The notes under the pieces: generated by a model
Seen by the model: only the letters and a program-made list of their open reading frames with translations
What the model was told of the DNA's origin: nothing
Databases searched by the model: none
Assembly: GCA_963820485.1 (NCBI GenBank)
Contig: CAWFZW010000004.1
Span: 61,743-125,742, forward strand
Direction of reading: 5' to 3'
Source: Candidatus Nealsonbacteria bacterium
GTDB taxonomy: Bacteria; Patescibacteriota; Minisyncoccia; Minisyncoccales; JBGOYX01
Length of the DNA: 64,000 nt
In this document: positions 4,024 to 58,285 of the stretch, piece by piece
Numbering within the stretch: the stretch's first letter is position 1
How the letters are laid out: every line of letters begins with the position of its first letter
Made by a program: the position numbers and the translations under genes

Positions 4024-6175
4024 TTACCATTCTAAAGTTTTCGTAATTTTGAATTCTTTTCTTTCTTTAAATTCTTCTTGTTTCCCTTCATTCCATTGAT
4101 CACCGGCCTTAAATACCCCACTACTCTTGAATAAACTTCGCAAGGCTGTTTGATTGTGCATTCTCGGACAAAAAAGTGTTCTCCTTCCAGATAACCATGA
4201 CTGGGACAAATTGAAAAAGTCGGAGTTAAAGTGATATAAGGCAAATGGAAATTTTCAAAAACTTTTTTAATCAAATTTTTAACCGTCTGGATATCAGAAA
4301 TTCTTTCTCCCAAAAAGAGATGTAAAACTGTGCCGCCAGTATATTTACACTGAATTTCATCTTGAAGTTTTAAAGCCTCAAAAGCATCATCGGTGTAATT
4401 ACCGGCAATTGGCTGGAGTTTGTATAATAAGGAACTTTTTTTGTTCCAGCACGAAATAATGTCCGGATATTTTTCTTTATCTTTTTGAGCGAAACGATAA
4501 GCAGTAGATTCGGCTGGCGTTGCTTCTAAGTTATAAATATTGCCAGTTTCTTTTTGATATTCAATTAATTTTTCTCTCATAAAATTTAAAATTTCTAAAG
4601 CAAATCTTCTTCCTCTTTTTGAAGCGATATTTTCTCCCAATAAAATTCAAAAGGGCTTCGTTCATTCCTACCAAACCAATGGTTGAAAAATGATTGGCAT
4701 AATAACCTCCTCTTGTTTTTTTAATCCCTGCAAATAAAATTTTGAATAAGGATAAAGACCTTTTTCAATAAAATTTTCCAAAGTTTTTCTTTTGATCTCC
4801 AAACTCTCTTTTGCCAAATCCATCATTTTCCCAAGTCTTTCAAAAAATTCTTTTTTGGTTTTTGACAAATAGCCAATTCTGGGCAAGATTCATTGTTACA
4901 ACGCCAGAGACTGCCAGTTAAGCTGCCGCTCCAAACAATCCTCCGCCGCCTCGGTTATAAAGTTCGGTTAAATCTCAAACTGAAGCCTGCAGCACATTGA
5001 CCTTACATCATCTGGTTTCATTTCGGAATTAATGTAATTGGCGAAATAATTTGTGCCGTATTTTGCCGAGGCCTCAAAAATAAGATCAAAAGCCGGGTCA
5101 TCCCAAGGAAAATCTTTAGTGATATTAATGGTGGGAATGGGAAAATGAAAGGGCCTTCCTGATTTATCTCCTCCTACCATCGTTTCATAAAAAGCCTTAT
5201 TAAAGATTTTCATTTCTTCTTCAAATTCCCGTAAGTTTCATTCTGAGGTTTCCGCCAATAATCACAGGTTGTTTGGCGAAAACTGGAGAAGGTTTAAGGT
5301 CTAAAGTAATATTAGTAAATGGACATTGAAATCCGACCCGGGTAGGAACTGCCATATTAAATAAAAATTCCTGTATAGCTTGTTTTACTTGTTGATAATT
5401 TAAATTGTCATAACGAATGAAAGGAGCAACAAAGTGTCAAAATTTGAAAAAGCAACAGCGCCAGCCGTTTCGCCTTGAAGAGTATATAAGAAAATTTACT
5501 GCCTGGCCTAAAGATTACCCTGAAAATGTTTTGCGGGTTTTGATTCAATTTTTCCCGGAACTCCTCCAAAACCTTTAAGCAATAAATCATACAAATCCCA
5601 TCCGGCACAATAAGGACCGAGAGTATCTAAATTATGGATATGAAAATCTCCGGATTCATTTGCTTCTCTGATTTCTTTTGGATAAATTTTGTTAAGCCAA
5701 TATTTTTTAACAATGTAAGAAACTCCGTAATGATTTAATCCCTGCAAAGAAAAAGCCATGTTGGCATTTTCTTGAACTTCCCAGTCAAGTTTCTCCAAGT
5801 ATTGATCAATTTTTCAACTGCCTCTTCGGAAAACTGTCACTGCTTCCCTGATTCTTCTTCTTTGTTCTCTGTAAAGAATATAAGCTTTCGCAGTTTCAAC
5901 TAAGCCTTCCAAAATTAAAACTTCTTCTACGAGATCTTGAATCTGTTCAACATCAGGAATTTCTTCTTGTGTGCGACCAAAACGGCGATTTAAAATTTTA
6001 ACAATCGGCGATTTAAAATTTTAACAACTTTTTCAGAAATTCTTTTTGATTTTTTCCCATCGCCCTGGCCGGTAGCTGTTATGGCTTTAAAAATAGCGTT
6101 GGTAATTTTTTCTTGGTCGAAGTCAACAATAGTTCCGTCTCTTTTTTTAACTTTAGTAATTTTATTTTGAGCCAT
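4024..6175 (-). CDS. nrdD: anaerobic ribonucleoside-triphosphate reductase, interrupted by several frameshifts and a 23 nt tandem duplication
   Basis: Fragments 5990..6175 (ATP-cone, KKRDGTIVDFDQEKI), 5508..5798, 4968..5213, 4668..4886, 4032..4640 and 4024..4209. The C-terminal glycyl-radical region is RVVGYLRPV / WNEGKQEEFKERKEF. Confidence 0.85.
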
Positions 6176-7394: not shown

Positions 7395-8616
7395 TCATGG
7401 TATAAAAATTTTAAAAATTCTTTTAATTTTTGTCCCCATCCCTTCTCCAAATTCAAAAGTTTTTCCTTCTGCCAAATCTGTTCCTAAAAGAACCAATCCG
7501 CCGCAAACTGCCAAAGCGGGGTCTTCTAAATTGGAAATTCCCTGGGGTTTTCCTATTTTAACCGGCAACTTTAACTCTTTTTTAGCTAATTCTGCTATTT
7601 TTGGCAATTTTGCCCCTCCGCCGGTTAAAACCACGCCAGCAGGCAATAGTTTTTCCTTGCCAATTTTCTTTAATTCTTTATAAATTTGACTGAAAATTTC
7701 AGAAACCCTTGGTTCAATAATGTTTGTTAATTGTTTCTGAGAAAAAATCAATGGAGCATCTTCGCCTATTTCAATTTTTTCTTTTTTTCTACTAACAGAT
7801 TTTTTATTATTCCCCTTTAAAGAACAAGTTCCGTATTCTATTTTTATTCTCTCTGCAATGTCAATGTCGGTTTTCAAACCAATAGCAATATCATTTGTAA
7901 TATTAGCGGAACCGATTGGTAAAATTATTAGATGAATTAAATCTCCTTCTTCAAAAACAGCTAAACCCGTAGTGCCTGCTCCAACATCAACTAAAGCCAC
8001 TCCCAATTCTTTTTGTCGGGAAGTTAAAACTGCTCGAGCTGAAGCTATTGGCGAAGGAATTCTGTCTAAAATTTGAAGGTCAGAATTTAAAACGGCTTCA
8101 GTCAAATTTTTTAAATAGGGTGAAAAACCGCCCAAAGCTAAAACGTCAGCTTCTAATCTCACTCCTCGAAGTCCTAAAACTTCTTTTATTCCACCTTGGC
8201 CGTCAACGATGAATTCTTTGGGAGAAACATCAAAAATTTCTTTGTTCGAAGGAAGAGAAAACGTCTGGGCGGCTTGAAAAACTCTTTCTATGTCTTCTTC
8301 AGAAATTTTTTGGTCAGCTCGGGAAACAGCTACCGTACCATGAGAAGAAGCAGAAAAAATGTGGCCGCCATTGATATTAAGAAAAACTGAATCAATTTTT
8401 AAACCATTATCATGCTGAATTTTTTCCAAAATATCGGTTAAGACAGTCAGAAACTTCTTCCATACCGATAACCACTCCTTTTCTGACTCCAGCCGCAGGT
8501 TCCTGAATTAAAGACATAACTTCTAATTCTGATTCTTTTGGTTTTTTTGAAGCAACTAAAATCTTTATCGCGCTTGTTCCAATATCTAAGCCAGTTATAA
8601 TAGATGGCTTTGCCAT
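7395..8616 (-). CDS. ftsA: cell division protein FtsA (frameshift near 8410-8430)
   Basis: Fragments 8410..8616 (ITGLDIGTSAIKILV) and 7395..8429 (actin-like ATPase, VDVGAGTTGLAVF). Lies directly upstream of ftsZ. Confidence 0.88.
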
Positions 8617-23745: not shown

Positions 23746-23787
23746 ATTTTTATTTTATCATTTTTAAAGTTTGAATTAAATAAAAAA

Positions 23788-23811
23788 GGCTGGCGACTGT
23801 AAGCCGCCAGC
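23788..23811 (-). terminator. intrinsic terminator after the 23826..24341 gene
   Basis: GCTGGCGGCTTACAGTCGCCAGC followed by CTTTTTTATTT on the minus strand. Confidence 0.7.
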
Positions 23812-23825
23812 TGTCGAAAAAAACG

Positions 23826-24341
23826 TTAGTGGCCGCATCCGCAAGAAGGAGACCACTGAGGAGAATGAAAATCACAGGACGGAGGATCCGGCCAGCCATC
23901 TTGCCTATGAGTACTGTACCACATCCACCAGCAGTTCCGGCATTCCGCCCAACTACCTAACTGGGAATAATTTTCCGCTAAGAATTTCTGAATGGTATCA
24001 TTTATCCCTAGTTGATAACCCTCATTTTTTCCATCATTCTCACCGACGGCATAACCTCGATTATATCCCTGGTCTTCACCTTCGGCCTTACCGCGTTGAT
24101 AACCTTCGCTGTCACCAACTTTCTTTCCTGCGGCAAACCCCAATACCTTTCCTTCTTCTAATCCGGCTCTATGGCCCGTCTTCTCGCCGTTTTCATTGCC
24201 CTGCTCATAGCCTTCGGAGTGTCCTCGCGCATATCCTTGAGCATCTCCCTGCTTTTCACCAAAATACAAACCAACAACAAAAGAAGCAACCACGGCGACG
24301 ATTATACAACACGTTGTTATAGCAACTTTCCATGGTTCCAT
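23826..24341 (-). CDS. membrane-anchored protein with (E/D)GY-x-x-G repeats and a Trp/Cys-rich tail; G+C-rich relative to its neighbours
   Basis: 171 aa. SD GGGAGGTGA 6 nt before the ATG. TM anchor, 11-residue-like repeats (GYARGHSEGYEQGNENGEKTGHRAGLEEG...), and C-terminus CRNCWWMWY...SCGCGH. Confidence 0.7.
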   Translation of the reverse strand: MEPWKVAITTCCIIVAVVASFVVGLYFGEKQGDAQGYARGHSEGYEQGNENGEKTGHRAGLEEGKVLGFAAGKKVGDSEGYQRGKAEGEDQGYNRGYAVGENDGKNEGYQLGINDTIQKFLAENYSQLGSWAECRNCWWMWYSTHRQDGWPDPPSCDFHSPQWSPSCGCGH

Positions 24342-24429
24342 TTTATGTCACCTCCCTTTCTTTTTTTTGTTTTTTTTAAGTTGTTCAAGAACTAAATAAA
24401 TTATTAATCACCTCCTTTGAAAACTAATA

Positions 24430-24457
24430 TATCATACCAAATGAAAGTTTTTTGTCA
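24430..24457 (-). promoter_or_regulatory. promoter (TTGACA-16-TATGAT with a TG extension) for the 23826..24341 gene
   Basis: Plus-strand atcata at 24430-24435 and tgtcaa at 24452-24457. Confidence 0.55.
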
Positions 24458-24473
24458 AGAGCGGGCCTACAAA

Positions 24474-25135
24474 TAAAAAACGGTCCGCACAAGAGGTGGA
24501 ACCGTTCGAGGAGGTGAGGCCTTGGGTAGTGGCGCAAGCGCCACTACCCAAACCAATAAATCGGCTTAATCGGGCTGTGCCTTTTAACCCTACTTATCTT
24601 CTTCGGGCTTTTTCATAGGCTTCCCTGCTGTGGAGCTTTATAGTCCCACCTTGAGCCGGTTTACCAAGTCGGCAGTTACGAGGCTACGACGTGAACCACT
24701 TCTGCCGAAGCCAGAAAGATACAATCATATATCACATCACCTCCCTTAGAAAAGAACCATGTGGGGTAGCCCATGACTACACAACTACCCTGCCACCCAA
24801 CGAGCGGAGGACTACCCCTGAAATGTAATGTAATGTGCTGTAATGACGGGGAGCCTCAATTTTGCTCTCGCCTCTTCCTCACTCCTTCTCTAATGAGCTC
24901 AGAGCGCTCCAGCCGTGTGATGGTGGCACAATGGGATTGTGCAGCAACTAGGCATAGTGCCTAGAGCTAGGCATGGTGCCTAGACAGAGTCGGTGTGCGC
25001 TACACGAGGTAGTTGCCGGACTTCTAATGCCAACCATACTGCTCTACTTATCCTCCTCCTTTTTTGAAAAAAGGAAACCAACCGACCTTGGTTTGGCTAA
25101 TGGTTTTTACCCATTATTCCTTCTTTCTTTTTAAT
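24474..25135 (-). ncRNA. candidate large (~660 nt) structured non-coding RNA, family unassigned
   Basis: Markedly more G+C-rich than the flanks, with stops in all six frames. Many perfect hairpins, including UUCG-looped CTGGC-TTCG-GCAG, a 14 bp stem TTGGGTAGTGGCGC/GCGCCACTACCCAA, and twin hairpins CTAGGCA-NNN-TGCCTAG. Own promoter at 25142-25169 and a terminator hairpin + T-run at 24474-24504. Confidence 0.5.
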
Positions 25136-25141
25136 TAATAA

Positions 25142-25169
25142 ATCCTATCAAAAATAAAAACCCTGTCAA
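25142..25169 (-). promoter_or_regulatory. promoter (TTGACA-16-TAGGAT) upstream of the candidate large RNA
   Basis: Plus-strand atccta at 25142-25147 and tgtcaa at 25164-25169. Confidence 0.45.
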
Positions 25170-25198
25170 TAATGGAAATTTCACCACAGGATTAATTT

Positions 25199-26452
25199 TT
25201 ACTTCTTTTTTATAATTCCTTCAAATTTTGTCAAAAAATCAATATTATCTTCAATATTTTCAAAAACAACCGTATTGGGACCAATATTACAATTATTTCC
25301 AATTAAAACCCCGGGCATCAAAGAGCAATTTATACCGGTTCTGGAATTTTCTCCCATAACCACCCCTAAAGAATCCAGACCTGTACCGATTTTTTCTCCC
25401 TTAACAATTGATTTTATCTCTCCCCTGTCAATTCTAACATTGGCAGTTATTGTTCCCGCTCCTATTCTGCAACCTTTACCGAAAATTGAATCGCCAAAAT
25501 AACCGGAATGAGTGTGAACATCTTCTTGAAAAATACATCTTGTTACTTCGGCTAAAGCACCGATTAAACTATTTTGTTCCAAATTGGTGTAATCTCTGAC
25601 CAAAGAATTATTCCCGATAACACAGTTATCGCCAATATAACAAGGTCCTTTAATTACTGCTCCTTCATAAATTTTTGCGTTTTCGCCGATAAAAACCTTA
25701 CCTTCAATGATGACGTTTTTTGAAATTCTGGCGGTTTTGGCAATTTTACCTTCTAAGTATTTGTCCATTAAATATTTTGTTACTTCAAATAAATGCCAAG
25801 GATATTTAAAGGCCAAAGTTTTTTCCTTGATAATTACAACTCTCACATCTTTTTCTCTCATATAAAGAGATAGGACGTCCTCAAAGGCATACATATGCTC
25901 TGGAACTCTTTGGTAATAATCTAAAAATTCTTTCGGCAAAAAGTAAATTCCAACAACTTTTATATTTGACGCCTCTTTCCCCTTTTCCGGTTTTTCAATC
26001 AGATTTTTTGCCTTATCTCCTTCTAAATCTAAAATTCCAAAAAGCGAAGGATTTTCAGTTTCAGCCCCCAGTAAAACCATTTTCGCTCCCGAAGATTTTT
26101 GTTTCTCTAAAATAGATTTAATATAATCCTTAACGTCAAATCTTTCGGCATTCAAAACAAAAAATTGGTCCTGTAAAACATTTCTTGCCTGAAAAAGAGC
26201 GTTTCCCATCCCTTTTGGTTCTTCCTGAATCACATATTTAATATCAATCCCTAAATTATAATGCTTCAATTCTTCTTCAACATCTTTTTTGGGCCCCTGA
26301 ACAACAATAATATCTTTAATCCCGGCCCTTTTTAAGCTTTCAATTGTATACCAAATCAAAGGCCTCCCCATTATTTTCAGAAGGGATTTATGCTTTATGT
26401 TTAATGGCCAGAAGCGAGATGACTCGCCTGCTGCTAAAATTAATGTTTGCAT
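25199..26452 (-). CDS. sugar-1-phosphate nucleotidyltransferase with a C-terminal left-handed beta-helix acyltransferase domain (GlmU-like)
   Basis: Intact 417 aa. N-terminal [13 protein letters not shown]...K nucleotidyltransferase signature. C-terminal hexapeptide repeats ([13 protein letters not shown]...). Confidence 0.8.
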
Positions 26453-27447
26453 AAATTTACTATAATTTTCGCCAATTTATTAGAGTCATGAAGAACCATT
26501 GTTCTTCTGTTTTCTTTTTTAACAAGAATATCCGAAGGATTTAATGGCTGGAGACGGCGATCTAAAATATCTGCTCCAATATAATTCTTATTTTTTAATA
26601 AATTTTTATCGTATTTAACGAAATCTCCTTTGGGGAAAACTTTTTTTATTTTTTTAAATAAAGCCTTGGGTAATTTTCCCGTGTTAAAAATCACATAATC
26701 AACGGAATTTTTTCCTAAATATTTTTCCAAAACAGTTAAAAAATCCTGTACGCTGAAATTGTCCGTATTGCCGCCCTGCGTCATTAAATTACAAATAAAA
26801 ACTTTTTTAGCTCGGGAACTGCGGAAAGCTGTTTTTATCCCTTTGACCAAAAAATTGGGTAAGATGCTGGTATAAAATTTCCCAGGAGCAATAATAATAC
26901 AATCTGCATTCTTAATTATTGAAATAGCCTTTGGGTTGGCTTTAACTTGAGGATTCAAATACAATTTTTTAATGCCTATTTTTGATAAATACCCGCAATT
27001 TATAATATTTTCTTCACCCTTTATTCTTTTTTTATTATTCAACAAAACTTCTATATCGGCATTGTTTAGGGTTACAGGAATTATTCTGCCTTTAATATTC
27101 AATAATTTTCCCATAATATCTACTGCTCTTTCTAAACTTCCTGCCATCTGCCCAATTCCAGCTATCAAAAGATTACCCAGATTTTGGCCTTTCAGCGTTC
27201 CTTTTCCAAAACGATAGTGAAGAAATTTGGTAAGGTTGCTTTCATTTGCTAAAGCAACCAAACATTGTCTTATGTCTCCGCAGGGTAAAACATTTAATTC
27301 TTTTCTTAATTTGCCGCTGGAGCCTCCGCTATCAAACATTGTTACAATAGCGTTTAAATTAAACGGGTATTTTTTTAGTCCGGATAAAACAACTGAAGAG
27401 CCAATACCTCCGCCAATAACAACGATATTTTTAATTCTTTTTGACAT
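26440..27447 (-). CDS. yvcK: YvcK/CofD-family (UPF0052) gluconeogenesis/cell-shape factor
   Basis: 335 aa. [17 protein letters not shown] and [12 protein letters not shown] motifs. Confidence 0.8.
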
Positions 27448-27476
27448 ATATTCTTCTATATATCTAAAATAAATTA

Positions 27477-28778
27477 TTGATTATGGCAAATAGTTTTCTT
27501 ATTAAAGGAGGCTTTCCTCTTTCAGGAGAGGTTGAAATTTCTGGCTATAAAAATTCAGCTGGCGCAATTTTGGCGGCTGTTTTGCTTTCCGAAGAACCAT
27601 CTATTATTGATAATCTGCCTCAAGTCACCGATGTTTTGGACCAAATTGAAATTTTAAAACAGATGGGTGCAGAAGTTGAATGGCAGGGAAAAAGAAAATT
27701 AAAAATAAATACAAAAAATATAAATCCTGAAAAAATTCCTATTAATCTTTTTGAGAAAATGAGGGTATCGGTACTATTTATCGGCCCCTTGGCCATCAGG
27801 TTTAAAAAGTTCAAAGTTCCCCATCCCGGCGGGGATAAAATCGGTTTAAGGCCGATTGTTACTCATCTGGAAGCTCTTGAAAATTTCGGCATAAAAACCG
27901 AAGAAAAAGACGGCTTCTATCATTTCCAAGCTCCCGAAAAACTGGAAGGTAAAAAAGTGGTTCTAAAAGAGTTCTCTGTAACCGCCACTGAAATTATAAT
28001 GATGCTGGCGAGCCGGGCTGCAGGAATTACTAAAATTGAAATTGCCGCCGCCGAACCCCAAGTTCAGGATTTGGGATTTTTTTTAAGAAAAATGGGGGCA
28101 AAGATAGAAGGAATCGGCACCCACACCATTAAAATTGAGGGAAAGGAGAAATTAGGCGGCGCCGAATTTTCTTTGTGTCCAGATTTACTGGAAGCCGGAA
28201 CGTTTTTTATAGCTTTAGCGCTGACCGGCGGAGAAGGCAGAATAAAAAACATAAATCCCGACCACCTCACATTTTTTCTGGGGAAGATGAAAGAAATGGG
28301 AGTAAATTTTGACATCTTAGACAACCCCAAAGGAATTCCTTTGGAATCCTACGGAACAAGTGAAATTTTAGTTAAGAAATCTAATGATTTTAAGCCAGCC
28401 AAAATTCAAGTCCTTCCTTATCCCGGATTTCCGACCGACTTGCAGCCCCAAACATCAGTTTTATTAACACAAGCTCAAGGAAAATCTTTAATCCACGACC
28501 CTCTATATGAAAATCGCTTCCAGCATTTGCACGAATTAAGAAAATTGGGGGCTGATATTGAAATCACCGACCCTCACCGGGCTTTAATTTTTGGAAAAAC
28601 GGAACTTATCGGGAATAAAATCAACGCCTCAGATATAAGATCGGGCGCAGCTTTAATTTTAGCGGGTTTAATTGCTAATGGCCAAACTACAATTGAAAAT
28701 ATTTCTCAAATTGAACGCGGCCACGAAGAAATTGAGGAAAAATTACGAAAACTCGGAGCACAAATTGAAAAAATATAA
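27477..28778 (+). CDS. murA: UDP-N-acetylglucosamine 1-carboxyvinyltransferase
   Basis: Intact 433 aa (an ATG at 27483 is also possible). EPSP/MurA fold motifs: GAKNSA-like YKNSAGAIL, PGGDKIGLRPI, YPGFPTDLQPQ. Confidence 0.93.
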   Translation: MIMANSFLIKGGFPLSGEVEISGYKNSAGAILAAVLLSEEPSIIDNLPQVTDVLDQIEILKQMGAEVEWQGKRKLKINTKNINPEKIPINLFEKMRVSVLFIGPLAIRFKKFKVPHPGGDKIGLRPIVTHLEALENFGIKTEEKDGFYHFQAPEKLEGKKVVLKEFSVTATEIIMMLASRAAGITKIEIAAAEPQVQDLGFFLRKMGAKIEGIGTHTIKIEGKEKLGGAEFSLCPDLLEAGTFFIALALTGGEGRIKNINPDHLTFFLGKMKEMGVNFDILDNPKGIPLESYGTSEILVKKSNDFKPAKIQVLPYPGFPTDLQPQTSVLLTQAQGKSLIHDPLYENRFQHLHELRKLGADIEITDPHRALIFGKTELIGNKINASDIRSGAALILAGLIANGQTTIENISQIERGHEEIEEKLRKLGAQIEKI

Positions 28779-28782
28779 TTAA

Positions 28783-28807
28783 AAGAGGGCGTCCAAAACG
28801 TCCTCTT
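28783..28807. terminator. bidirectional hairpin between the convergent murA and MetE-like genes
   Basis: AAGAGGGCGT-CCAAA-ACGTCCTCTT. Confidence 0.6.
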
Positions 28808-29510
28808 ACAAACCCAATAGCAACTCTCTTGTGATTTGTTGAAGATTGTGAAATACTGGTTCGCAATCTTCAACCGTATATTCCAACGGGCTCAAGCCGC
28901 ACGGTGGCGTGATCAAATCGCCTTTTTGGAAATCTTTAACATCTTCTCTCTTTTCTATACCCCAAGCAATTTTCTTACCGCCCCTATAATGGAGGTACTT
29001 TGTAATATCGTATTGAGATGCATTGAAACTTATAATTTCAATGGCTTGCGATTGAAAAATGACATCCCAATCCATATTTCCGCAGCAATGCACGCCTGGT
29101 ATTACTGAGAAACTCTTGAATATCGGCGTCCATAAGTCCTCAAAATTAAATCCTGCTTGGCCCAGACCGGGTTCGTCTAAGATAAGAATAATTTCCTTTG
29201 CTTTAAGGGGCTCCATAATTAAGGAAATATATTTTACTATCTTTCCCACTGCCTCATCTTCGCTGTAGCCACGCATAACTAATGTTGCTGGTCCGGGAGC
29301 CTGAATTTTTACGGTAGTAAATTCGTTTTTGCAGAATTCGGATAAACAACTTGGGCAAATGAGTTCCTTAATCCAATCCAGCATGAATCCATCCAGCTTC
29401 GGAAGTTCTGGTAAAAAAGGTTTACCATGTCTCAAGCTATACTTTACGGCTTGTTTTATCTTTTTAAAGGGCAATGAGCCAATTTGAGTAATTGGTAATA
29501 TATCCTGCAT
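28806..29510 (-). CDS. MetE-like (cobalamin-independent methionine synthase / UROD-like fold) zinc protein; G+C-rich inserted gene
   Basis: 234 aa. SD GAAGGAGGTGA. TQIGSLPF N-terminus, and GVHCCGN and PPCGLS resembling the His/Cys zinc ligands of the MetE family. Confidence 0.55.
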   Translation of the reverse strand: MQDILPITQIGSLPFKKIKQAVKYSLRHGKPFLPELPKLDGFMLDWIKELICPSCLSEFCKNEFTTVKIQAPGPATLVMRGYSEDEAVGKIVKYISLIMEPLKAKEIILILDEPGLGQAGFNFEDLWTPIFKSFSVIPGVHCCGNMDWDVIFQSQAIEIISFNASQYDITKYLHYRGGKKIAWGIEKREDVKDFQKGDLITPPCGLSPLEYTVEDCEPVFHNLQQITRELLLGL

Positions 29511-29582
29511 TATTCACCTCCTTCTTAATTATTAGAGTAGTAATTCTAAAATATGTGATATTAATAAAAAAATCAAGGCCAG

Positions 29583-29645
29583 CGCGGCCACGAAGAAATT
29601 GAGGAAAAATTACGAAAACTCGGCGCCCAAATTGAAAAGATTTAA
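29583..29645 (+). pseudogene. orphan second copy of the last 20 codons + stop of murA
   Basis: 59/63 nt identical to 28716-28778. All 4 differences are synonymous third-position changes, so both copies encode RGHEEIEEKLRKLGAQIEKI*. Confidence 0.85.
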
Positions 29646-29664
29646 ATAAATTAAAATAAAAATT

Positions 29665-29745
29665 AAAAAATCGTCCGACCTGTAAGGTATAGGGCGATTT
29701 TTTTATTTGGCAGGTCGTCTATCGGACAATGTTAGATCCTGTCTG
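29665..29745 (-). repeat. junction element copy J (3' element with exact ATCTAAC core; hairpin variant; no -10)
   Basis: Minus strand reads CAGGATCTAACATTGTCCGATAGACGACCTGCCAAATAAAAAAATCGCCCTATACCTTACAGGTCGGACGATTTTTT. Confidence 0.6.
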
Positions 29746-29746
29746 G

Positions 29747-30367
29747 TTATAATAGGCCCAATTTAATTAACTCTTTCCTTAATTGCCCTGGTGCCTGAAA
29801 AACAATTCCGTACATCCCTAATTTCTCCGCCGTTTCAACATTAACCTTTTTATCGTCTACAAAAACACAAGCTTCGGGTGGAAGGTTCAGCCTTTTAAGT
29901 GCGATTTCGTAAATCTTTTGGTCAGGCTTCTTAAAACCTTCTTCGCAAGACCAAATAAAAGTTTCTACTCCAATGTCTCTAAGCCTCTGAAGCCTTCCCA
30001 TTTCTTCATCAGCCAAAAGAGAAGTTTTATTTATATTTGCTAAGACAGCTAAACGAATCCCTCTTTTGTGTAATTCGCTTAGAATATCCCATGATGGCTT
30101 GATATCTTTAGACCACTCTTTATACGAGTTAAACCAGAAATTATCGGTAAATTCTTTAGATAATTCAATCCCTCTCTGTATTTTAATTTCATTCCAAAAA
30201 ATACTTTCATCAATCTCCCCCTTACCCCATCTATCAAAAAGCGGCTTAACGATTTCTTCTGTTTTCTCTGTGCCGATGTTTAATTCATCGGCGATCTTTT
30301 TATACAATACCGTCCAATTTTCTGTTGCCAAAACTGAACCTAAATCAAAAATCACTGCTTTTATCAT
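29747..30367 (-). CDS. HAD-superfamily hydrolase (YihX-like, IFDLGSVL motif I); cassette ORF
   Basis: 206 aa. Motif I VIFDLGSV and motif IV FVDDKKVN. Module copy F has TAGAAT 6 nt before the ATG. Confidence 0.8.
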   Translation of the reverse strand: MIKAVIFDLGSVLATENWTVLYKKIADELNIGTEKTEEIVKPLFDRWGKGEIDESIFWNEIKIQRGIELSKEFTDNFWFNSYKEWSKDIKPSWDILSELHKRGIRLAVLANINKTSLLADEEMGRLQRLRDIGVETFIWSCEEGFKKPDQKIYEIALKRLNLPPEACVFVDDKKVNVETAEKLGMYGIVFQAPGQLRKELIKLGLL

Positions 30368-30373
30368 AAATTT

Positions 30374-30457
30374 ATTCTACCAAAAAACCGCCTTCTTTTA
30401 AAAGCGGCTCCCCTTCTGTGAGGGCTAGTCAGGGTGGCTAAGCAGATTCAAACCAGT
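30374..30457 (-). repeat. junction module copy F
   Basis: Minus strand reads CTGGTTTGAATCTGCTTAGCC...CAGAAGGGGAGCCGCTTTTAAAAGAAGGCGGTTTTTTGGTAGAAT. Confidence 0.65.
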
Positions 30458-31010
30458 TTAGCCTTTAGCTAATTCAAACGCCTTGAGATTTAATTCCAGA
30501 AATTGAGCTGGAATTATTTTTTTAATGGCGGTTTTAATCGATTCGGATTCCAGAGGGATTAAATTTTTGGAAACAGCCAAGCTCATCAGGTAAATGCCGG
30601 AAAAACCTCTTTTCCAAGTTTTTCTTGGCAGATTTTTTCTGCCGGGAAACCGATAATGCCTTTACTAATTTTTTTTAGCTTATTTAAAATTTCTTTTTCC
30701 GACAAGGGTTTTTCCGCGGGAATTGGAAAAACATATTGATTAATCAAAAAATTGGTCTTCGAATTGGCAAAATAAATTCCGTTTAAAGTTTCTTGCTCTT
30801 CCAGACCTAAAACTAAATCGGCCTTTCCTTGAGATACCATTGGCGAAAAAATCTTCTTGCCGAATTTGATATGAACTTCCACCGAACCTCCTCTTTGAGC
30901 GAAACCGTGAAGCTCCGAACTTATAACGTCATAACCTTCCAACAGGGCGGCCTGATTTAAAATCTGCAAAAGAGTAATCAACCCCTGTCCGCCACTCCCA
31001 TAATTATCAT
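30458..31010 (-). CDS. iorB: indolepyruvate/2-oxoacid:ferredoxin oxidoreductase beta (gamma-like) subunit, frameshifted
   Basis: ATG at 31010 gives MIIMGV; one G is missing in GGQG. ORF 30586..30981 carries ITLLQILNQAALLEGYDV...HGFAQRGGSV. The C-terminus was recovered in another frame. Confidence 0.75.
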
Positions 31011-31032
31011 ATTAAATTGGTGGGTTATTTTT

Positions 31033-32651
31033 TTAATTTATTACGAATTTACAGGGATGTTTGGCAATGATTACCGAAACTTCTTCTTTATCCAAAAAAT
31101 TCTTTAACCGTATGGATAAATTCTTCCTGATTTATCGGGGTCGATTGTTTTTAAATTTTTTACTCCGCAGGCTGAACCAGAGTTTCAATTTCTATTGGCT
31201 CTGCCACGCCGACGGCAGCCGGATGAGGTTGATGACCGGTCATAGCCGTAGTTTCATTATTTAAAATAATAATTAAAGGATTTGATTTGTTGACAACGGC
31301 ATTAATTAAAGCCGGAATTCCCGCGTGAAAAAAAGAACAATCGCCGACAAAAGTAATCAATTTTTGACTGGTGGCTTTCTCAATTCCGTGGGCAATTCCC
31401 ACCGAAGAACCCATACAAGAGAAATAATCCTGCAAATCAACTGGCGAATTGCCAAAAAGCATATAACAGCCAATTTCTCCGCCAAAAATTACTTCCTCAG
31501 GTTAACCGCTTTTTTTATAGCTGAAAAACCAGCCAATAAGGGCATCCGGGGCAGAGTTGAGGAAACGTTTGGCGCGAATTTTTGATTCCGTTTCAATTTA
31601 TAATTTTTGTTAGCGACTTTGCCAATAGCCGAAATGACATTTCGGGTTTTGATTCGCCGACTTCGGCAATAGATTTTTCCCAAAAATTGAAGTTTACGAT
31701 TTACTTCTTTAGCTAAACCTTTTACCCATTGTTCCAAAGATGGCTTCCAGTTCTTCTACAATTAAAACTTTTTTAAGTTTCCTTATAAAATTTTTAGCTT
31801 TTTTATTGGGAGAAGGATAAAAAAACCCGAGCTTCAAAATAGGAAGGTTGAGATTCAACTCTTTTAAATTTCTTCCACATATAGATAAGAGATGGCTGAA
31901 GTTATAATTCCTATTTTTGATTTTTTGCCAATTTCAATCTTATTTATTTTTGTTTTTTCTGAAAACTCTCTTATTTTTTCAATTTTTTCAAACAACTCTT
32001 TTTTCATTTCCAAAACGCGTGGCGGCAAGTCACACATCGTTTGACGTCTTTAATAAATTTTCCTTTATTCTTAATTCCTAATTCATACTCCCCAATTTTT
32101 ACCGGCATTCTCTGATGGGCCACTCTTGTGGTAGTTCTTATCATCACTGGTATTTTAAATTTTTCTGAAATTTGAAAACCTAATTTGATAAAATCTAAAC
32201 ATTCTTGCGGGTCGGATGGCTCTAAAATCGGAATATGAACAAGATTTTTAATGGGTCTCGTATTTTCTTCTGACTGGGCTGAACTGTGACAGGAAGGGTC
32301 GTCAGCAACAATAATCACGGTCGGCCCCTTTGTGCCCGTATAAACAAAAGGAAATAAAGCGTCCAAAGCAACATTCAAGTCCGAAATTTTTCATTGCCAC
32401 TAATGTTTTTAAGCCGGAAAAAGAGGCGCCGATGCTAGCTTCCAAAGCTACTTTTTCATTGGTGGAAAATTCAAAATAAACTCCAGCGTCTTTTGCAATT
32501 TTATAAAAAATATTGCCGATTTCCGAAGCCGGCGTACCAGGATAAGTGGAGATAAAATTGACGCCCGCTTCCAAGGCGCCTCTAACAATAGCTTCATTTC
32601 CCAATAAAATAATTTTTTTATTGGAATTATTTAATGAAGAATATTCTCCAT
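31033..32651 (-). CDS. iorA: indolepyruvate:ferredoxin oxidoreductase alpha subunit (TPP-binding), multiple frameshifts
   Basis: Fragments 32302..32604 (GNEAIVRGALEAGVNFISTYPGTPASEI), 32004..32378 and 31160..31462 (GDCSFFHAGIPALINAV, TAMTGHQ). Confidence 0.75.
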
Positions 32652-32662
32652 ATATATATATT

Positions 32663-34483
<1,821 letters not shown>

Positions 34484-43585: not shown

Positions 43586-45882
43586 TTATTTCAATAATCC
43601 CTTTATTTTAGCTATTAAATCTGTTATTAAATCGGTAATCATTTGGACAACAGAAGCCAATTGACTTTCTTTGTTTTGTGGCTCAAAACTACTTCCGCCG
43701 CAATTTGCATCACAGGTCGCTTTAGAATTTGTTATAAAACCATAACCGCCCCAGGCAGCAGCGCAACAATAAGGCGCAGATGACGTTGCGGTATTATATA
43801 AACCACATCTGCAGGGCAGTACGGCATTAGAATATTGGCATGAAGAGTAAGTACAGGTTGGTGTTGGGGTTGAGGTAGGCGTGGGGGTTGGAGTGGCTGT
43901 ACCACAATTTGCATCACAGGTTGTTTTAGAATTTGATGTAATACCACTACCGCCATTACCAGCAGCGCAGCAATAAGGATAAGATGCTGTTGCGGTATTG
44001 GATGAACCGCATTTACAGGGCAGTACGGCATTAGAATATTGGCATGAAGAGTAAGTACAGGTTGGTGTTGGGGTTGGAGTTGGAGTTGGGGTTGGAGTAG
44101 GGGTTGGAGTAGGAGTTGGTGTTGGGGTTGGGGTTGGGGTTGGAGTGGGTGTACCGCAATAAGAATCGCAGGTCGCTTTAGAGTTTGTTACAAAACCATA
44201 ACCGCTCAAATAAGAAGCGCAGCAATAAGGATAAGATGCTGTTGCGGTATTGGATGAACCGCATTTACAGGGCAGTACGGCATTAGAATATTGACATGAA
44301 GAGTAAGTACAGGTTGGGGTTGGGGTTGGGGTTGGGGTAGGGGTAGGGGTTGGTGTTGGAGTGGGTGTTGGAGTGGGTGTTGGGGTTGGGGTTGGCGTTG
44401 GGGTTGGCGTTGGGGTGGGGGTTGGGGTTGGGATTGGAGTTGGAGTGGGGGTTGGAGTTGGGGTGGGGGTGGGGGTAGTAAGATTGAACATAGTCCCAAC
44501 TGAAGTGTCAGAATTTAAAGTTAAGGTACAAATATTATTAGTGCTACCAGAGCAAGCTCCCGACCAACCTGCAAAGATGGAACCAGAAAAAATAGAGGCG
44601 GTTAGAGTAACTTGTGTTCCTTGAGTATAGTTTTCTGAACAATCTGTTCCGCAGTTAATACCTGAAAGAGAACTAGTAATATTGCCGGAACCTGTTCCTA
44701 ATTTTGAAATATTTAAAGTATATGTGGTACCGCCTACAAGATTAAACGCAGCTCCAACTGAAGTATTGGAATTTAAAGTCAGAGTGCAGGTGCTGGTACC
44801 GGAGCAAGCTCCTGACCAGCCAGTAAAGGTGGAACCTGCGGCCGGAGAAGCGGTAAGAGTAATTTGAGTTCCTTGGTTGTAATCTTCAGTACAATCTGTG
44901 CCGCAGTTAATACCAGAGGGGGAAGAAGTAACTGTTCCTGAACCTGTGCCTGATTTGGAGAGAGTTAAGGTATAGCTTGTGGGTAGTAGTAAGATTAAAG
45001 GCAGCTCCGACTGAAATATTAGAATTCAAAGTAATAGTACAGGTAGTTTTAGTACCCGAGCAAGCTCCTGACCAGCCTGCAAAAGTGGAACCTGTGGTTG
45101 GAGTGGCGGTTAAGAGTAATTTTAGTACCAGAAACAAATTTAATACTGCAAGTGCTTCCGCAGTTAATACCAGAAGGAGAACTATTAATAGTTCCAGAAC
45201 CTGTGCCTGATTTGGAAATCGTAACGGTTTTTGAGTTGTTGGGTTGGTGTTGAAGAGGGTTTAGGTGTCGCTGTCGGAGTTGGAGATGAAGGTGTGATGT
45301 TGGAGTTGGAGTAATTACGGGGGAAAGGTTGGTGTGGGTTCGGGGGTAAGTGATGGAGTGATTGTTGGCATTGTAAAACCTTTGCTTCCGGGTTGATTAA
45401 GATTAGAAACACAATACTCTTGTTTGGTTCTTTCTAATTTATTAGCGCAAATTTTCCAGGAACAACCTTTTGTCTGCTTGACAAATATTAAAACCTTCGC
45501 CATTGTCTGGTTCAAAATAATAATAGTAAGGATTGCGATCTATGGGGTCAATCGGAAGTTTGGCAATCAAGTCTGGCAGTAAAACTCTTAAATCCGTCCT
45601 GTCGCACCAATTATCCCCATCAGGCAGGGTTTGATCATCACTGCACCCCATACTGGTGTCAAAATAATGATTTTCTTCGGGATATTTATCGTATACTGAC
45701 CAATACGTTTCCAAAGCGTCGGCTATTTGTTTTACATCTGCTTCTCTTTTTGCGTCTCTCTTTTTTTCATTAATAGATTTGAGATTCATAAAAACTATGG
45801 TACCCAAAACAGCAACAGCTATTAACACCCAAACCACGCTTAACCCTTTTTGTTTCAACACAGTTGTTGTTGAAATTTTCAT
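43586..45882 (-). CDS. mosaic surface protein: pseudopilin-like N-terminus + Pro/Thr linkers + 3 InlB-type B-repeat domains + 3 eight-Cys modules (several frameshifts)
   Basis: Fragments 45442..45882 (hydrophobic N-terminus, then [27 protein letters not shown] as in GspG/pilins), 45315..45515, 45185..45412, 44907..45137 ([38 protein letters not shown]) and 43586..44491 (TP repeats; [18 protein letters not shown]...YCCA...CDxxCG three times). Confidence 0.7.
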
Positions 45883-47256: not shown

Positions 47257-48963
47257 TTATTCCTCACCCGTCGGGCTGGATTTTAAAGAAGTATCAATTG
47301 CCGGAACCGTACTTTCTATTAGAGTTGAAGCCCAATTGTCTTCGGCTGTGATTGTGGCTTGCCCTACAAGCTGAAAAATCTGATTACCTTGAGAAAAATC
47401 AGGAGTAATGGCAACTTGAAAAGTAACCTTTGGAGCTGAGTTTAAAATTCCCGCCCCGACTCCCAAATCCCCAATTTCCCAAACGATTTCTCTTGACTGG
47501 GAGTCAAAAGTTAGTCTTGAATCTTCCGGGATGATTTTGCCGGTTAATTTAACTTGCGACGGCAAAACGGCTTTCACTTTTACATCTTTTAAATCGTTAT
47601 AATAATTATTAACTTCCCAAACTATTGCGTAAGTGGTGGTCTGGCCGACTTGGGGAGGAATTGGTCCTATATTTTCAAAGCCATCCAGTTGGGCATATCC
47701 TTTTTGAGAAATTTCCAATTTTGAGTTTATTTTAGTTGTAAATTCTTCCTGAACTTGGGATATATAAACCCTATTTTTAATAACCGGATTTCTATCTTGT
47801 GAGCCGGTAAATGATAAATTATTTTTTAATTTTACCCAAAAATCAATCTTTCCCTCTTCTTGAGGAAGCAAAAGCTGAAGCTTTGAAACTCTTTTCCAGT
47901 CAAAAACGACCGAATTATCTCCCGCATTAAAGTCTCCCAGTTCGGACTTTAAACTTTCCAAATCAAAAGCTGCTCCATCCAAAGTTGCCACTAAAAACAA
48001 ATAATCGGACTTTAAACTTTCTAAATCAAAGGCTGCTCCGTCCAAAGTTGCCACTAAAAATAAATTTGTCATAGCTTCCTGACTAAGGTTTTTAAAGAAA
48101 ATTTCATAATGAAGATTATCTCCCAGATTGGCGACGTATTGAGGATTTCCGTTAATCATTTGGGAAATAAAAATGTTAGGCTGGGCGATTTCTACTCCCT
48201 TGGTTGTGTCTTTTAATAAAATAAATTCTCCATTCTGTAAAACACCCAAACTTGCTCTAAAAATTTTCTGTCCTCCTACGTCTCCCCTAAGAATACCTGA
48301 AATTTCAATTCTTCCTCCCTCGGCTTTATTTAAAAGGGGGATTTCCCACTCGGTTTTATCCAAAGCAGTAGGGTTGGAATCAATAAATTCAAAGTCAGAA
48401 GGATAATCGATTTTTACTCTCAAGTTGGAAAGAGGATAATTTGCATTTGAAAAATAATTTAACTTAAAATTGGTCGTTTTACCGGATTCTATTTTTGAAG
48501 GAATATCAAACTCAAAGGTGATGGGAACTTTTTTAATAATTGTGGTGAAGGTGGTGGTTACTTCATAACGAGCACTTAAGTTTTTTGGCTTAAAATTCAA
48601 CCAAGCTTTGGCTTCTTTGGTTTCATTTTCTTTTCCAAATAGTCTTGCTTTAAAAGAATAAGTTTTTTCTTGACCGGGATAAATGGGTTCTAATACGATT
48701 TCTTTTCTTAAAAAACTTTCCCCCTCCACAATTGAATATTTTGGATATTCAAAAATAAGCTTTGGCTCTTCTAATTTAAAATTGCCGTTGTTTTTATATT
48801 TAACAATGTATTCAACCTCCTCGCCAAGGTCTGTTTCATTGGGTCCTAAAATTTCCAATTTCAAAACTGATTTTGAATAGACGTTTCTTTGGTAATACCA
48901 AAAACCCAAAACTCCCAAAATTACCGCAAAAATTATAAGAAAAAAAATGATTTTTTTACGCAT
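47257..48963 (-). CDS. large membrane-anchored hypothetical surface protein with an internal 21-aa tandem duplication
   Basis: Intact 568 aa. N-terminal TM (IIFFLIIFAVILGVLGFWYY). Beta-rich repeats. Duplicated LFLVATLDGAAFDLESLKS. Confidence 0.75.
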   Translation of the reverse strand: MRKKIIFFLIIFAVILGVLGFWYYQRNVYSKSVLKLEILGPNETDLGEEVEYIVKYKNNGNFKLEEPKLIFEYPKYSIVEGESFLRKEIVLEPIYPGQEKTYSFKARLFGKENETKEAKAWLNFKPKNLSARYEVTTTFTTIIKKVPITFEFDIPSKIESGKTTNFKLNYFSNANYPLSNLRVKIDYPSDFEFIDSNPTALDKTEWEIPLLNKAEGGRIEISGILRGDVGGQKIFRASLGVLQNGEFILLKDTTKGVEIAQPNIFISQMINGNPQYVANLGDNLHYEIFFKNLSQEAMTNLFLVATLDGAAFDLESLKSDYLFLVATLDGAAFDLESLKSELGDFNAGDNSVVFDWKRVSKLQLLLPQEEGKIDFWVKLKNNLSFTGSQDRNPVIKNRVYISQVQEEFTTKINSKLEISQKGYAQLDGFENIGPIPPQVGQTTTYAIVWEVNNYYNDLKDVKVKAVLPSQVKLTGKIIPEDSRLTFDSQSREIVWEIGDLGVGAGILNSAPKVTFQVAITPDFSQGNQIFQLVGQATITAEDNWASTLIESTVPAIDTSLKSSPTGEE

Positions 48964-56716: not shown

Positions 56717-57167
56717 ATGAAGGTATTAGCTGAGAATAAAAAGGCATATTTTAATTATGAAATCCTGGAGAAGTTTGAAGCAGGGATTTCTTTGATTGGA
56801 CAGGAAGTAAAATCAATTAAAACCAAAGGGGTAAATTTAGCCGGTTCTTATGTGGTTGTAAAAGATGAAGAGGTTTTTTGGATTGGGGCAAGAATTCCTC
56901 CTTATCAGCCAAAAAATGCGCCCCCTGATTATCAACCGGAGAGGTCGCGGAAACTTCTTTTGAGAAAATCAGAAATTAAATATTTAATCGGAAAATCCCA
57001 GCAAAAAGGCTTGACTTTGATACCTTTGAAAGGTGTATAATAAAAATGGTAAAATCAAATTTGAGTTTGGAATAGCAAAAGGAAAAAAGGAATTTAATAA
57101 AAAAGAGTTAATTAAAAAAAGGGAGACAGAAAGAGAAATTAAAAGAGAATTAAATTTACGGGGATGA
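56717..57167 (+). CDS. smpB: SsrA-binding protein SmpB (frameshift near 57035)
   Basis: ORF 56717..57040 (KAYFNYEILEKFEAGISLIGQEVKS, RSRKLLLRKSEI). The C-terminal tail KIKFEFGIAKGKKEFNKKE... is in another frame and stops at 57165-57167. Confidence 0.88.
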
Positions 57168-57507
57168 AAAAGAATCGATGAAAGATCTTTATAAAATATG
57201 CAGGCTGAGTTTACTAGAATCTCAAAAAACTTCTGGTAAAAAGAATAAATGCCAATTTATTCAAACAACCCGCTTTAGCTTACGTCTAAAGCCATCTAAT
57301 TTAGTGATTCTCGATAGCTAAAATTAGGTGTCATATTATCGAGATAGATGGTTCTTTTGTCTCGCGAACTTATCAAAGCAACAGAGACAATTAGTACTAG
57401 AGCTTTTTTCTGTTTCTAATCTAGTATTTCAAAGTTAAACAGAATAATCCTGTAGAATTATTTTAAAAAGACTTTCAGATGTGGGAGCATCACCCACCAT
57501 CTCCACC
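57160..57507 (+). ncRNA. ssrA: tmRNA (SsrA)
   Basis: 5' GGGGATG pairs with 3' CATCTCC, including the G3-U pair. T-arm GTGGG-AGCATCA-CCCAC. Discriminator A + CC. Candidate tag frame GCC AAT TTA TTC AAA CAA CCC GCT TTA GCT TAC GTC TAA (ANLFKQPALAYV) at about 57251-57289. Lies next to smpB. Confidence 0.85.
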
Positions 57508-57508
57508 G

Positions 57509-58021: not shown

Positions 58022-58201
58022 AAACAAGGAAATCAATTTTAAAACGTTTTAAAATTCACAAAAACCGGTAAGATATTAAGAAGACCTACCGGTCTTGATC
58101 ATTTTAGGGCAAAAAAGTCAGGGAAAAAAATCAGAAAATCGCGAAAGTGGATAAGAGTTTCCCCATCCGAGGTTAAAAAAATAAGAACCTTACTTAGGTA
58201 A
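58018..58201 (+). CDS. rpmI: 50S ribosomal protein L35 (frameshift at about 58065)
   Basis: ATG overlaps the infC stop (ATGA). MKTRKSILKRFKI / TGKILRRPTGLDHFRAKKSGKKIRKSRKW... Confidence 0.8.
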
Positions 58202-58285
58202 GAACCTTGATTTCTTACAAAAATAAGAACCTTACTTAGGTAAGAACCTTGATTTCTTACTTCGTTCGAAATTCAAACATTACTT
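58177..58285 (+). repeat. 42 nt tandem duplication containing the AAGAACC-hairpin-AAGAACCTTGATT motif (copy iii), rpmI-rplT spacer
   Basis: ATAAGAACCTTACTTAGGTAAGAACCTTGATTTCTTAC at 58181-58218 and again at 58223-58260, followed by TTCGTTCGAAATTC. Confidence 0.8.

Follow-up and report, generated by a model that had tools for sequence, protein, structure and literature searches.

Insertion of a single gene at the 3' end of murA in a Nealsonbacteria contig leaves a gene-end duplication that recurs in other Paceibacteria lineages

The 64,000-nucleotide (nt) stretch of Candidatus Nealsonbacteria DNA analysed here (contig CAWFZW010000004.1, the full stretch being referred to below as the window) carries an inserted unit of 867 bp between the essential gene murA and its native terminator. 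The unit comprises a 63-nt murA end, a terminator hairpin, a single gene designated X234, and the ribosome-binding site and upstream region of that gene. It is a real and fairly recent gene gain: an uninterrupted form of the site is found in the closest species representative, and insertions with the same kind of scar, a duplicated murA end, are found in other lineages with different cargo. The bacteria of the Candidate Phyla Radiation (CPR, or Patescibacteria) have tiny genomes with few recognisable mobile elements, and their gene gain is poorly understood. At the murA locus a gene-gain scar has been kept in readable form, with an occupied site, an empty site and a joint, and it recurs at the same gene end in several lineages.

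The two copies of the murA end (Table 1) are identical at 59 of 63 nt. Alignment confirmed what an earlier note on this DNA had reported, namely that the four differences all fall on third codon positions and are synonymous, so that both copies encode RGHEEIEEKLRKLGAQIEKI followed by a stop. The differences lie at 28757/29624, 28760/29627, 28772/29639 and 28775/29642 (copy 1/copy 2), and copy 1 bears an A at all four sites. The upstream edge of the repeat is abrupt, as had been noted, whereas the downstream edge does not coincide with the stop codon as had been thought, similarity continuing for 5 nt beyond it to give a repeat of 68 nt at 93%. The first 41 nt are identical between the copies and the four differences are confined to the last 22 nt, which corresponds to no difference at about 13 synonymous sites in the proximal part versus 4 of 7 in the distal part (Fisher p = 0.007). 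The copies are thus mosaic, and the clustering points to a recombination breakpoint inside the block and not to random decay of an untranslated copy. Copy 2 has no preceding start codon and is preceded by in-frame stops. A degenerate pattern of the murA end had exactly two matches in the window, with 0.00 expected (100 shuffles), and, low-complexity arrays and one pair of paralogues aside, the two murA ends form the sole dispersed repeat of this kind in the 64 kb. For murA itself, the listed open reading frame (ORF) begins with a TTG at 27477, while the ATG at 27483 is the start in relatives; an exact-protein look-up of its product in two start variants returned no record.

Table 1. Features of the murA junction in the window, the adjacent insertion, and repeat-less insertions at the murA junction of related loci
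Feature	Position	Strand	Basis or remark
murA, UDP-N-acetylglucosamine 1-carboxyvinyltransferase, intact	27483..28778	+	Pfam EPSP_synthase 1e-75; NCBIfam TIGR01072 475 bits, above cutoff
Copy 1, functional last 20 codons and stop of murA	28716..28778	+
Hairpin of 10 bp between the convergent murA and X234	28783..28807	both	folding; absent from L007
X234, inserted gene, 234 amino acids	28806..29510	-	ORF; absent 3' of murA in about 100 relatives
5' region of the insert, AGGAGG site and AT-rich putative promoter, 72 nt	29511..29582	-	sequence
Copy 2, displaced and untranslated original murA end	29583..29645	+	contiguous with homologue of L007 post-stop sequence
Native murA terminator hairpin, now cut off from murA by the insert	29660..29708	both	directly after murA stop in L007
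Separate single-gene insertion of 720 nt, HAD-family hydrolase (29747-30367)	29716..30435	-	Pfam Hydrolase/HAD_2; absent from L007
Inorganic pyrophosphatase	L016		repeat-less insertion
107-amino-acid ORF	L033		repeat-less insertion
Protein without Pfam match, apparently membrane-embedded	L043		repeat-less insertion
MFS transporter fragment	L071		repeat-less insertion
V4R-domain protein	L079		repeat-less insertion

The locus was compared with those of about 100 related Paceibacteria (CPR/Patescibacteria), which were drawn from genome and metagenome collections and chosen around murA (related contigs are denoted by L numbers), and relatives of its murA place the window in the Paceibacteria. The closest species representative, L007 (JBGOYX010000009.1), has a murA that is 95% identical to that of the window at the amino acid level and about 90% at the DNA level. 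It aligns colinearly with the window as far as the murA stop, from which point it continues directly with a homologue of 29646-29715 and then with the sequence from 30436 onward. The empty site that the earlier note had predicted, in which the murA stop runs straight into the sequence at 29646, is therefore present in L007, and the proposal of a real insertion at the murA terminus is borne out by it. Over 137 nt the sequence following the L007 stop is 87.6% identical to that following copy 2, and this empty-site allele identifies copy 2 and its terminator, which are continuous with an L007-like flank, as the displaced resident end, left behind as a repeat in the manner that had been suggested. 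L007, the only one of the about 100 relatives close enough to inform on polarity, has the copy 2 base at three of the four variant sites and the copy 1 base at the remaining one. The four distal A variants of copy 1 appear from these comparisons to have come with the insert. In about 60 of the about 100 relatives a convergent POR-gamma gene directly follows murA, at a distance of 0-140 nt or overlapping it, and in others an OFOR-beta gene takes its position. Neither X234 nor the HAD gene described below was found at the murA junction in any of the about 100 related loci.

Between the copies, the layout is as the earlier note had described it, with a hairpin and a single opposite-strand gene preceded by a strong Shine-Dalgarno sequence. 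The hairpin folds on both strands (-14.4 kcal/mol with z -6.1 on the plus strand, -10.9 kcal/mol with z -3.2 on the minus strand) and is likely a bidirectional terminator that arrived with the insert. For comparison, the native terminator folds at -18.2 kcal/mol on the plus strand and -13.0 kcal/mol on the minus strand. The AGGAGG ribosome-binding site of X234 (29517-29522) lies 6 nt ahead of the ATG. A promoter consensus scan found no strong site in the AT-rich stretch upstream of the gene (29511-29582), which is presumed to hold the X234 promoter. At the far end of the insert, the transition ...AATCAAGGCCAG|CGCGGCCACG at 29582|29583 is a non-homologous joint with no counterpart in L007. The joint AAGGCCAG|CGCGGCCACG holds a repeated GGCC, which may be microhomology. 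The description of the insert as rich in G+C holds only weakly. The G+C content is 38.6% between the copies and 39.6% in the X234 ORF, compared to 39.1% in murA and 34.5% in the window, and total G+C was consequently rejected as a marker of foreignness, since murA is equally high; only the G+C content at third codon positions (GC3) of X234 is mildly raised (0.387 vs 0.287 +/- 0.049 for 50 window ORFs).

Every locus was scanned for a second copy of its own murA end, which revealed two or three further insertion events at the same position, one in L091 and one or two in the sister loci L013 and L014, with different cargo. In L091, two 49-nt repeats that are 100% identical surround 3.15 kb of DNA with three minus-strand genes, one for a CYTH-domain protein and two for proteins without a Pfam match, and five relatives that are 95-96% identical (L086, L088, L089, L090 and L093) have the empty site. 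In L014 (the same contig as L066), 53-nt repeats with 98% identity, differing by one synonymous change and by TAG vs TAA, flank an ORF of 159 amino acids, and L013 holds a diverged second copy (NLDEKLRKLGDRIERI-stop) 2.5 kb downstream. The logic of a replacement gene end, on which the earlier note had drawn, can be seen directly in these sister loci: their murA genes are 95.2% identical in the body and 75.9% in the last 54 nt, and identity between their cargo proteins is only 40%. The longest run without a difference between the copies is 41 nt in the window, 41 nt in L014 and 49 nt in L091, and on the left the repeats begin 63, about 54 and 49 nt ahead of the stop, respectively. In approximately 940 kb, no long ORF other than murA was found to have a direct repeat terminating at its stop codon, a comparison made against roughly ten other genes per locus, since the loci had been picked around murA.

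In the L091 insertion, copy 2 is immediately preceded by a 33-nt copy (29/33) of the native sequence that follows the murA stop, i.e. the 3' end of the OFOR-beta gene, so that the order runs from the murA end through the cargo and a downstream piece to a second murA end and a second downstream piece. The score of this 33-nt piece was not equalled in any of 500 shuffles, and two of its four variants are common to the allele of another lineage (L092). A downstream piece with the variants of another lineage indicates that the insert is a chromosomal fragment of a relative. A reading of copy 2 in L091 as a murA end with a 21-nt internal deletion was dropped, the 10-nt match behind it being part of the 33-nt downstream copy. 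Single-gene insertions without any repeat are also present at the murA junction in five loci (Table 1), and from the variety of insertions at the murA/POR junction it follows that this junction is a hotspot for gene gain.

Two further features of the sister loci deserve description in their own right. In both, the displaced murA end is preceded at a distance of 15-25 nt by a near-perfect palindrome, ATGTTARACATC-N-GATGTTTAACAT (L013 6246-6270, L014 6879-6903). L014 has a further copy at 7728-7752, past a HEPN/MNT toxin-antitoxin pair, and neither the window nor any other locus contains the palindrome. The ORF that follows murA in L013 and L014 (L014 6267-6850; also L118 4001-4590) belongs to a family without a Pfam match whose members are exactly 159 amino acids long and share 72-90% identity across many candidate phyla of the Patescibacteria. 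Downstream of the ORF comes a conserved noncoding block of ~70-100 nt (…GTGCCTGCCTTCGGCTTATGTATT…GGGCTGACGCCCCACAAGCAC) without an Rfam match. The ORF and the noncoding block may form an unrecognised gene-plus-RNA unit. The ORF was considered as the gene of a murA-specific element and rejected as such, as it represents a highly conserved Patescibacteria family and occurs elsewhere, without duplication, in the one other locus examined. Rfam searches of the window region and the other occupied loci gave nothing relevant, with no match over 24000-34000 of the window.

The explanation that we favour, with moderate confidence, is a homology-anchored insertion of a fragment of a related chromosome, in which one RecA-type crossover in the conserved murA end was combined with one non-homologous joint. 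The sequences themselves show the insertion, the empty site, which of the two copies is resident, the recurrence in other lineages and the mosaic copies; the enzyme, a circular intermediate and the identity of the donor are inferred. The incoming DNA would have been a piece of chromosome from another member of the Paceibacteria, with the gene already situated just after the murA stop of that relative. A homologous crossover within the conserved last ~60 nt of murA would have anchored it, and a non-homologous joint would have formed at the other end of the fragment. This could have happened through circularisation of the fragment and a single Campbell-type crossover, or through homology-facilitated illegitimate recombination (HFIR) with the joint landing 63 nt upstream of the murA stop, and both routes would lead to the same product. 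The segment from the joint to the stop would be duplicated, copy 2 and its terminator representing the resident end and the distal third of copy 1 having come with the gene, and murA would remain intact with the cargo on its own expression signals. The L091 layout would likewise result if a relative's murA end, cargo and downstream piece were placed head-to-tail and crossed over in the murA end or, alternatively, if the far end of the fragment were joined illegitimately 49 nt upstream of the recipient's stop.

The evidence for a homologous anchor lies in the stretches of uninterrupted identity of 41, 41 and 49 nt given above, and the evidence for a related chromosome as the source in the L091 flank, the diverged murA ends of L013 and L014 and the clustered differences in the window. 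The original work on HFIR was reportedly carried out in Acinetobacter and S. pneumoniae. In E. coli, 56 of 60 integrants had the homologous locus duplicated over 109-950 bp after transferred DNA had circularised and integrated by a single crossover, and in HFIR one homologous end is combined with a joint at 3-10 bp of microhomology, usually with deletion of recipient DNA (PMC3240628). Since a deletion at the murA/POR junction would harm one of these two genes, only joints that duplicate, or that fall in the intergenic spacer, are expected to survive there.

Several points weigh against a homology-anchored insertion. The donor arrangement, in which the murA end (...GGAGCACAAATTGAAAAAATATAA), the hairpin and X234 would occur without copy 2, was not found, and the nearest X234 homologue is only 69% identical and located elsewhere. 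Crossing over on 41-49 nt of identity is inefficient in model bacteria, and a double-stranded circular intermediate fits poorly with the single-stranded uptake of natural transformation. The structure is known from assembled contigs. The integrase search consisted of motif regexes and about 30 ORFs examined with Pfam, and a recombinase could act in trans from elsewhere in the genome. Finally, all gene-end duplications found are at murA and of about 49-63 nt, as a site-specific system predicts. A possible explanation for the narrow size range is that the identity needed for crossover would set a floor and the instability of long repeats a ceiling.

The main rival, which we consider possible and clearly less probable, is that the insert is the remnant or satellite of a site-specific integrative element whose attP mimicked the murA 3' end and whose tyrosine or serine recombinase was later lost or acts in trans. 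Direct repeats of the murA 3' end (63, 53 and 49 nt) that end at the stop codon, together with a replaced gene end that restores murA, are the classical att signature, and the three or four events at murA, compared to none among the roughly 1000 remaining gene ends of the loci examined, would suit a dedicated site, as would the similar lengths of the repeats. The palindrome upstream of copy 2 in L013 and L014 is a candidate protein-binding site, and the same logic is found in tycheposon islands, which have partial tRNA genes and degraded integrases (10.1101/2020.12.28.424599). The machinery of such an element was nevertheless not detected. No recombinase or transposase domain was found with Pfam in the cargo ORFs of the four occupied sites (the window, L013, L014 and L091) or in ten further downstream ORFs, 20 cargo and downstream ORFs altogether, and regexes for the box I/II motifs of tyrosine recombinases gave nothing in the 64-kb window or in about 125 loci, including the about 100 related ones. 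PADLOC flagged only an MzaB-like GHKL ATPase in L013. Neither the murA-end pattern, which matches the window and 34 loci, nor X234 was found in the IMG/VR viral contigs, so that a viral mimic of the murA end is missing there. No junction motif is common to the window, L014 and L091, the palindrome being restricted to the sister loci, and the events have unrelated cargo. They also differ in the position of the left repeat boundary, and the presence of a relative's downstream chromosomal sequence head-to-tail in the L091 insert would be unexpected for an evolved attP.

Other element classes fit no better. The features of a transposon or insertion sequence are missing, as there is no transposase domain and no inverted repeat pairing the insert ends, and the repeat is 63 nt long with non-identical copies. 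The insert end likewise has no attC-like imperfect palindrome as in integron cassettes, only the simple 10-bp terminator, and no integrase was found. The earlier note had thus been right in calling the unit integrase-less. Its view of the murA terminus as an attachment site stands insofar as the terminus has been used repeatedly in other lineages, and not in the sense of a true att site; its proposal of a dedicated cassette is not supported, given that no common element ends, recombinase or phage-borne site were found and that the L091 insert holds the chromosomal flank of a relative. Such features agree better with homologous recombination and a single illegitimate joint than with integration at a specific site.

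It is unlikely that the end of murA was instead duplicated in place during the capture of foreign DNA, by a staggered break with fill-in or by a small tandem duplication, and that the differences accrued later. Such an origin would agree with the 100% and 98% identity of the copies in L091 and L014, and in L091 the murA end plus 36 nt could also be regarded as tandemly duplicated, the cargo then lying within the first of the two units; the adjacent HAD insertion, moreover, is a plain illegitimate capture at the murA locus. However, neutral decay should scatter differences, including over other codon positions, while the window has synonymous differences only, every one of them within the last 22 nt. 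The 4 differences in 33 nt of the L091 downstream piece, two of them variants found in another lineage, compared to 0 in 49 nt of the adjoining repeat, indicate that the two have different origins, and the replaced murA end in L013 vs L014 would be left unexplained.

A false duplication through mis-joined contigs or strain variants, the alternative that the earlier note had raised, is very improbable, even though the source is a metagenome assembly. A separate European Nucleotide Archive (ENA) assembly (ERZ25039515, contig_62305; L001) has both copies and the junctions base for base. The joint at 29582|29583 connects unique sequence with an internal part of murA, the two sides having no sequence in common, whereas assemblers mis-join inside repeats and not at their edges; the copies differ at four positions and so do not represent a collapsed or expanded identical repeat; and analogous structures occur in unrelated assemblies from other studies (L013, L014 and L091). 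L001, the sole other contig with this very structure, is itself mosaic, which could reflect a strain-switching assembly. It is identical to the window but for two bases over 26474-30478, a tract with cofD, murA, X234, copy 2 and the HAD gene, and outside this 4-kb tract the identity is about 70-98%, with the differences concentrated at third codon positions, from which it follows that the flanks belong to a genuinely different lineage. The tract is either a recent import by homologous recombination between lineages or the product of a strain-switched assembly, and L001 is therefore only partly independent support. In the case of an import, the right-hand crossover would lie within 49 nt of the HAD junction, which would fit the homology-anchored mechanism.

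If the homology-anchored explanation is right, short conserved gene termini suffice to dock foreign genes, and gene-end duplications could serve as a genome-wide marker of such events. A broader version of this idea, which we regard as doubtful, is that the conserved last ~50-60 nt of an essential gene act as a portable homology arm for integrase-free cassette traffic in Paceibacteria, and perhaps in the CPR generally: host recombination would loop the cargo out as a small circle, and ~40-50 nt of identity would let the circle re-enter murA elsewhere. The murA terminus would then function as an attachment site with RecA as its enzyme, and self-contained single genes, each with a promoter and a terminator of its own, could spread as pseudo-mobile units with no element-encoded enzyme. 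The class of mechanism is already known. We know of no description of a recurrent, scar-leaving use of one gene terminus in Patescibacteria, a point on which the literature searches touched only in part.

The inserted gene X234 had no match in Pfam (E <= 0.01), NCBIfam (E <= 1) or PADLOC, and a profile of its family had no sequence match among the PDB chains. It has 631 homologues of about 230 amino acids with 55-69% identity, which are found in CPR bacteria, DPANN archaea, Omnitrophota and Bipolaricaulota. The AlphaFold2 model of the protein (pLDDT 85) gave as top Foldseek matches MetE 3pph (E 6e-4, TMq 0.64) and the URO-D structures 4wsh and 2inf, which suggests a short TIM-barrel protein with a MetE/URO-D-like fold from an uncharacterised family. 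In an alignment of 36 sequences, His141-x-Cys143, Cys204 and Glu113 are invariant, and these residues, which resemble the zinc site of thiol methyltransferases, may correspond to it. The earlier label "MetE-like" is thus appropriate at the level of fold and motif and not at that of family membership, as there is no match to a Meth_synt or URO-D profile. The nearest described kinds are the core-MetE enzymes (PMC7005905) and MesA-D (PMC7857596), core methionine synthases without a folate domain, and the URO-D methyltransferases. All of these share the TIM-barrel, while X234 is about 100 residues shorter and matches neither the Meth_synt_1/2 nor the URO-D profile. Its family, which is large and well conserved and common to CPR, DPANN and Omnitrophota, is a candidate minimal methyl- or thiol-transferase in reduced genomes.

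One X234 homologue sits between folE and a formate-tetrahydrofolate ligase gene. In three loci (L002 2030-2533, L003 6694-7218, L005 6785-7276) a conserved ORF of about 163-174 amino acids without a Pfam match comes after the homologue, in the same orientation, which may encode a functional partner of X234 and is absent from the window insertion. X234 itself was considered as the mobile part and rejected, as the contexts of homologues in nine loci (L002-L005 and L113-L117) are varied and none of these homologues is flanked by a gene-end duplication; it is the murA site, and not X234, to which the scar belongs.

Immediately downstream of the native terminator, the window carries the separate HAD-family insertion listed in Table 1. 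Its flanks show only CAGGT/CAGGGT microhomology and no gene-end repeat, and L007 is uninterrupted at this site (...GGCAGGT|GGCTAAG...). The HAD gene has a promoter-like site at 30402-30374, and an exact look-up of the protein matched only the L001 contig. A CTACCAAAAAACCGCC…GGCG module is present in seven copies in the window (184, 866, 3228, 30363, 62389, 62891 and 63449). Its minus-strand sequence can be read as a terminator hairpin with an extended -10 box (TGGTAGAAT) behind it; the box lies only ~8 nt ahead of the HAD start codon, a spacing that hints at short-leader or leaderless transcripts. Beyond the HAD gene, POR-gamma, POR-alpha/beta and glmS (30458-34483) are each broken over two or three frames and only 35-92% identical to the intact L007 proteins, while other window genes are intact; the three look like decaying pseudogenes.

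A few observations elsewhere may also be recorded. The Nealsonbacteria contig L115 has 52-nt direct repeats (4229-4280 and 4641-4692, 98%) around an 82-amino-acid GIY-YIG ORF downstream of dnaJ, which may be a homing-endonuclease-type insertion with a duplication scar of its own. Within the window, GGTTGG-type arrays are densely packed at 43650-45400; they have periods of 12 and 18 nt, are nested in repeats of 252 nt and lie on the complement of a minus-strand ORF of 479 amino acids with unusually high G+C (45.7%), probably a repetitive surface protein. Tandem duplications occur at 58173-58256 (42 nt x 2, 98%), about 660 nt after the tmRNA gene (57160-57508), and at 47942-48065 (63 nt x 2, 93%), the latter in frame within a minus-strand ORF. 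A plus-strand ORF of 180 amino acids at 23780-24322, with 48% G+C and 0.47 as its GC3, greatly exceeds the window mean of 34%; it had no Rfam match at the gathering threshold, and it may be foreign or not a real gene.

Among known systems, several resemble the murA insertions in part. The CIMEs (cis-mobilisable elements) of Streptococcus thermophilus are integrase-less, att-flanked elements at the 3' end of fda. Degraded tycheposon remnants in Prochlorococcus similarly carry partial tRNA repeats (10.1101/2020.12.28.424599). Both share with the murA insert the position of the cargo at the 3' end of a conserved gene, the flanking gene-end repeats, a gene restored by the incoming copy, the lack of a recombinase inside the unit and a streamlined host genome. 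They differ in that CIMEs and tycheposons have recognisable relatives with an integrase at the same site, from which they descend or by which they are mobilised, whereas no such relative was found for murA, and in that the junction position varies between the murA inserts and L091 holds a relative's chromosomal flank.

Campbell-type integration and HFIR (PMC3240628) share with the murA scar the combination of one homologous anchor and one illegitimate joint without an element enzyme and, for the Campbell single crossover, the duplication of a homologous segment of variable length on both sides of the insert. The anchor is shorter at murA, with 41-49 nt of unbroken identity vs the 109-950 bp duplicated in the E. 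coli experiments (PMC3240628), and classical HFIR usually deletes recipient DNA where the murA scar duplicates it. Unlike those cases, the murA scar is always at the end of one essential gene, and it is natural and recurrent in uncultured Patescibacteria. Finally, the murA/POR junction resembles the chromosomal hotspots of horizontal transfer described by Oliveira et al. 2017 (PMC5635113), which lack mobile elements and show recombination in the flanking core genes. It holds different single genes or small gene sets according to lineage, without mobile-element genes, and its flanks show signs of recombination, namely the identical tract in L001 and the replaced murA end. Turnover of a hotspot through a double crossover in its flanks leaves no scar, whereas the gene-end duplication at murA records the joint and thereby makes the mechanism readable.

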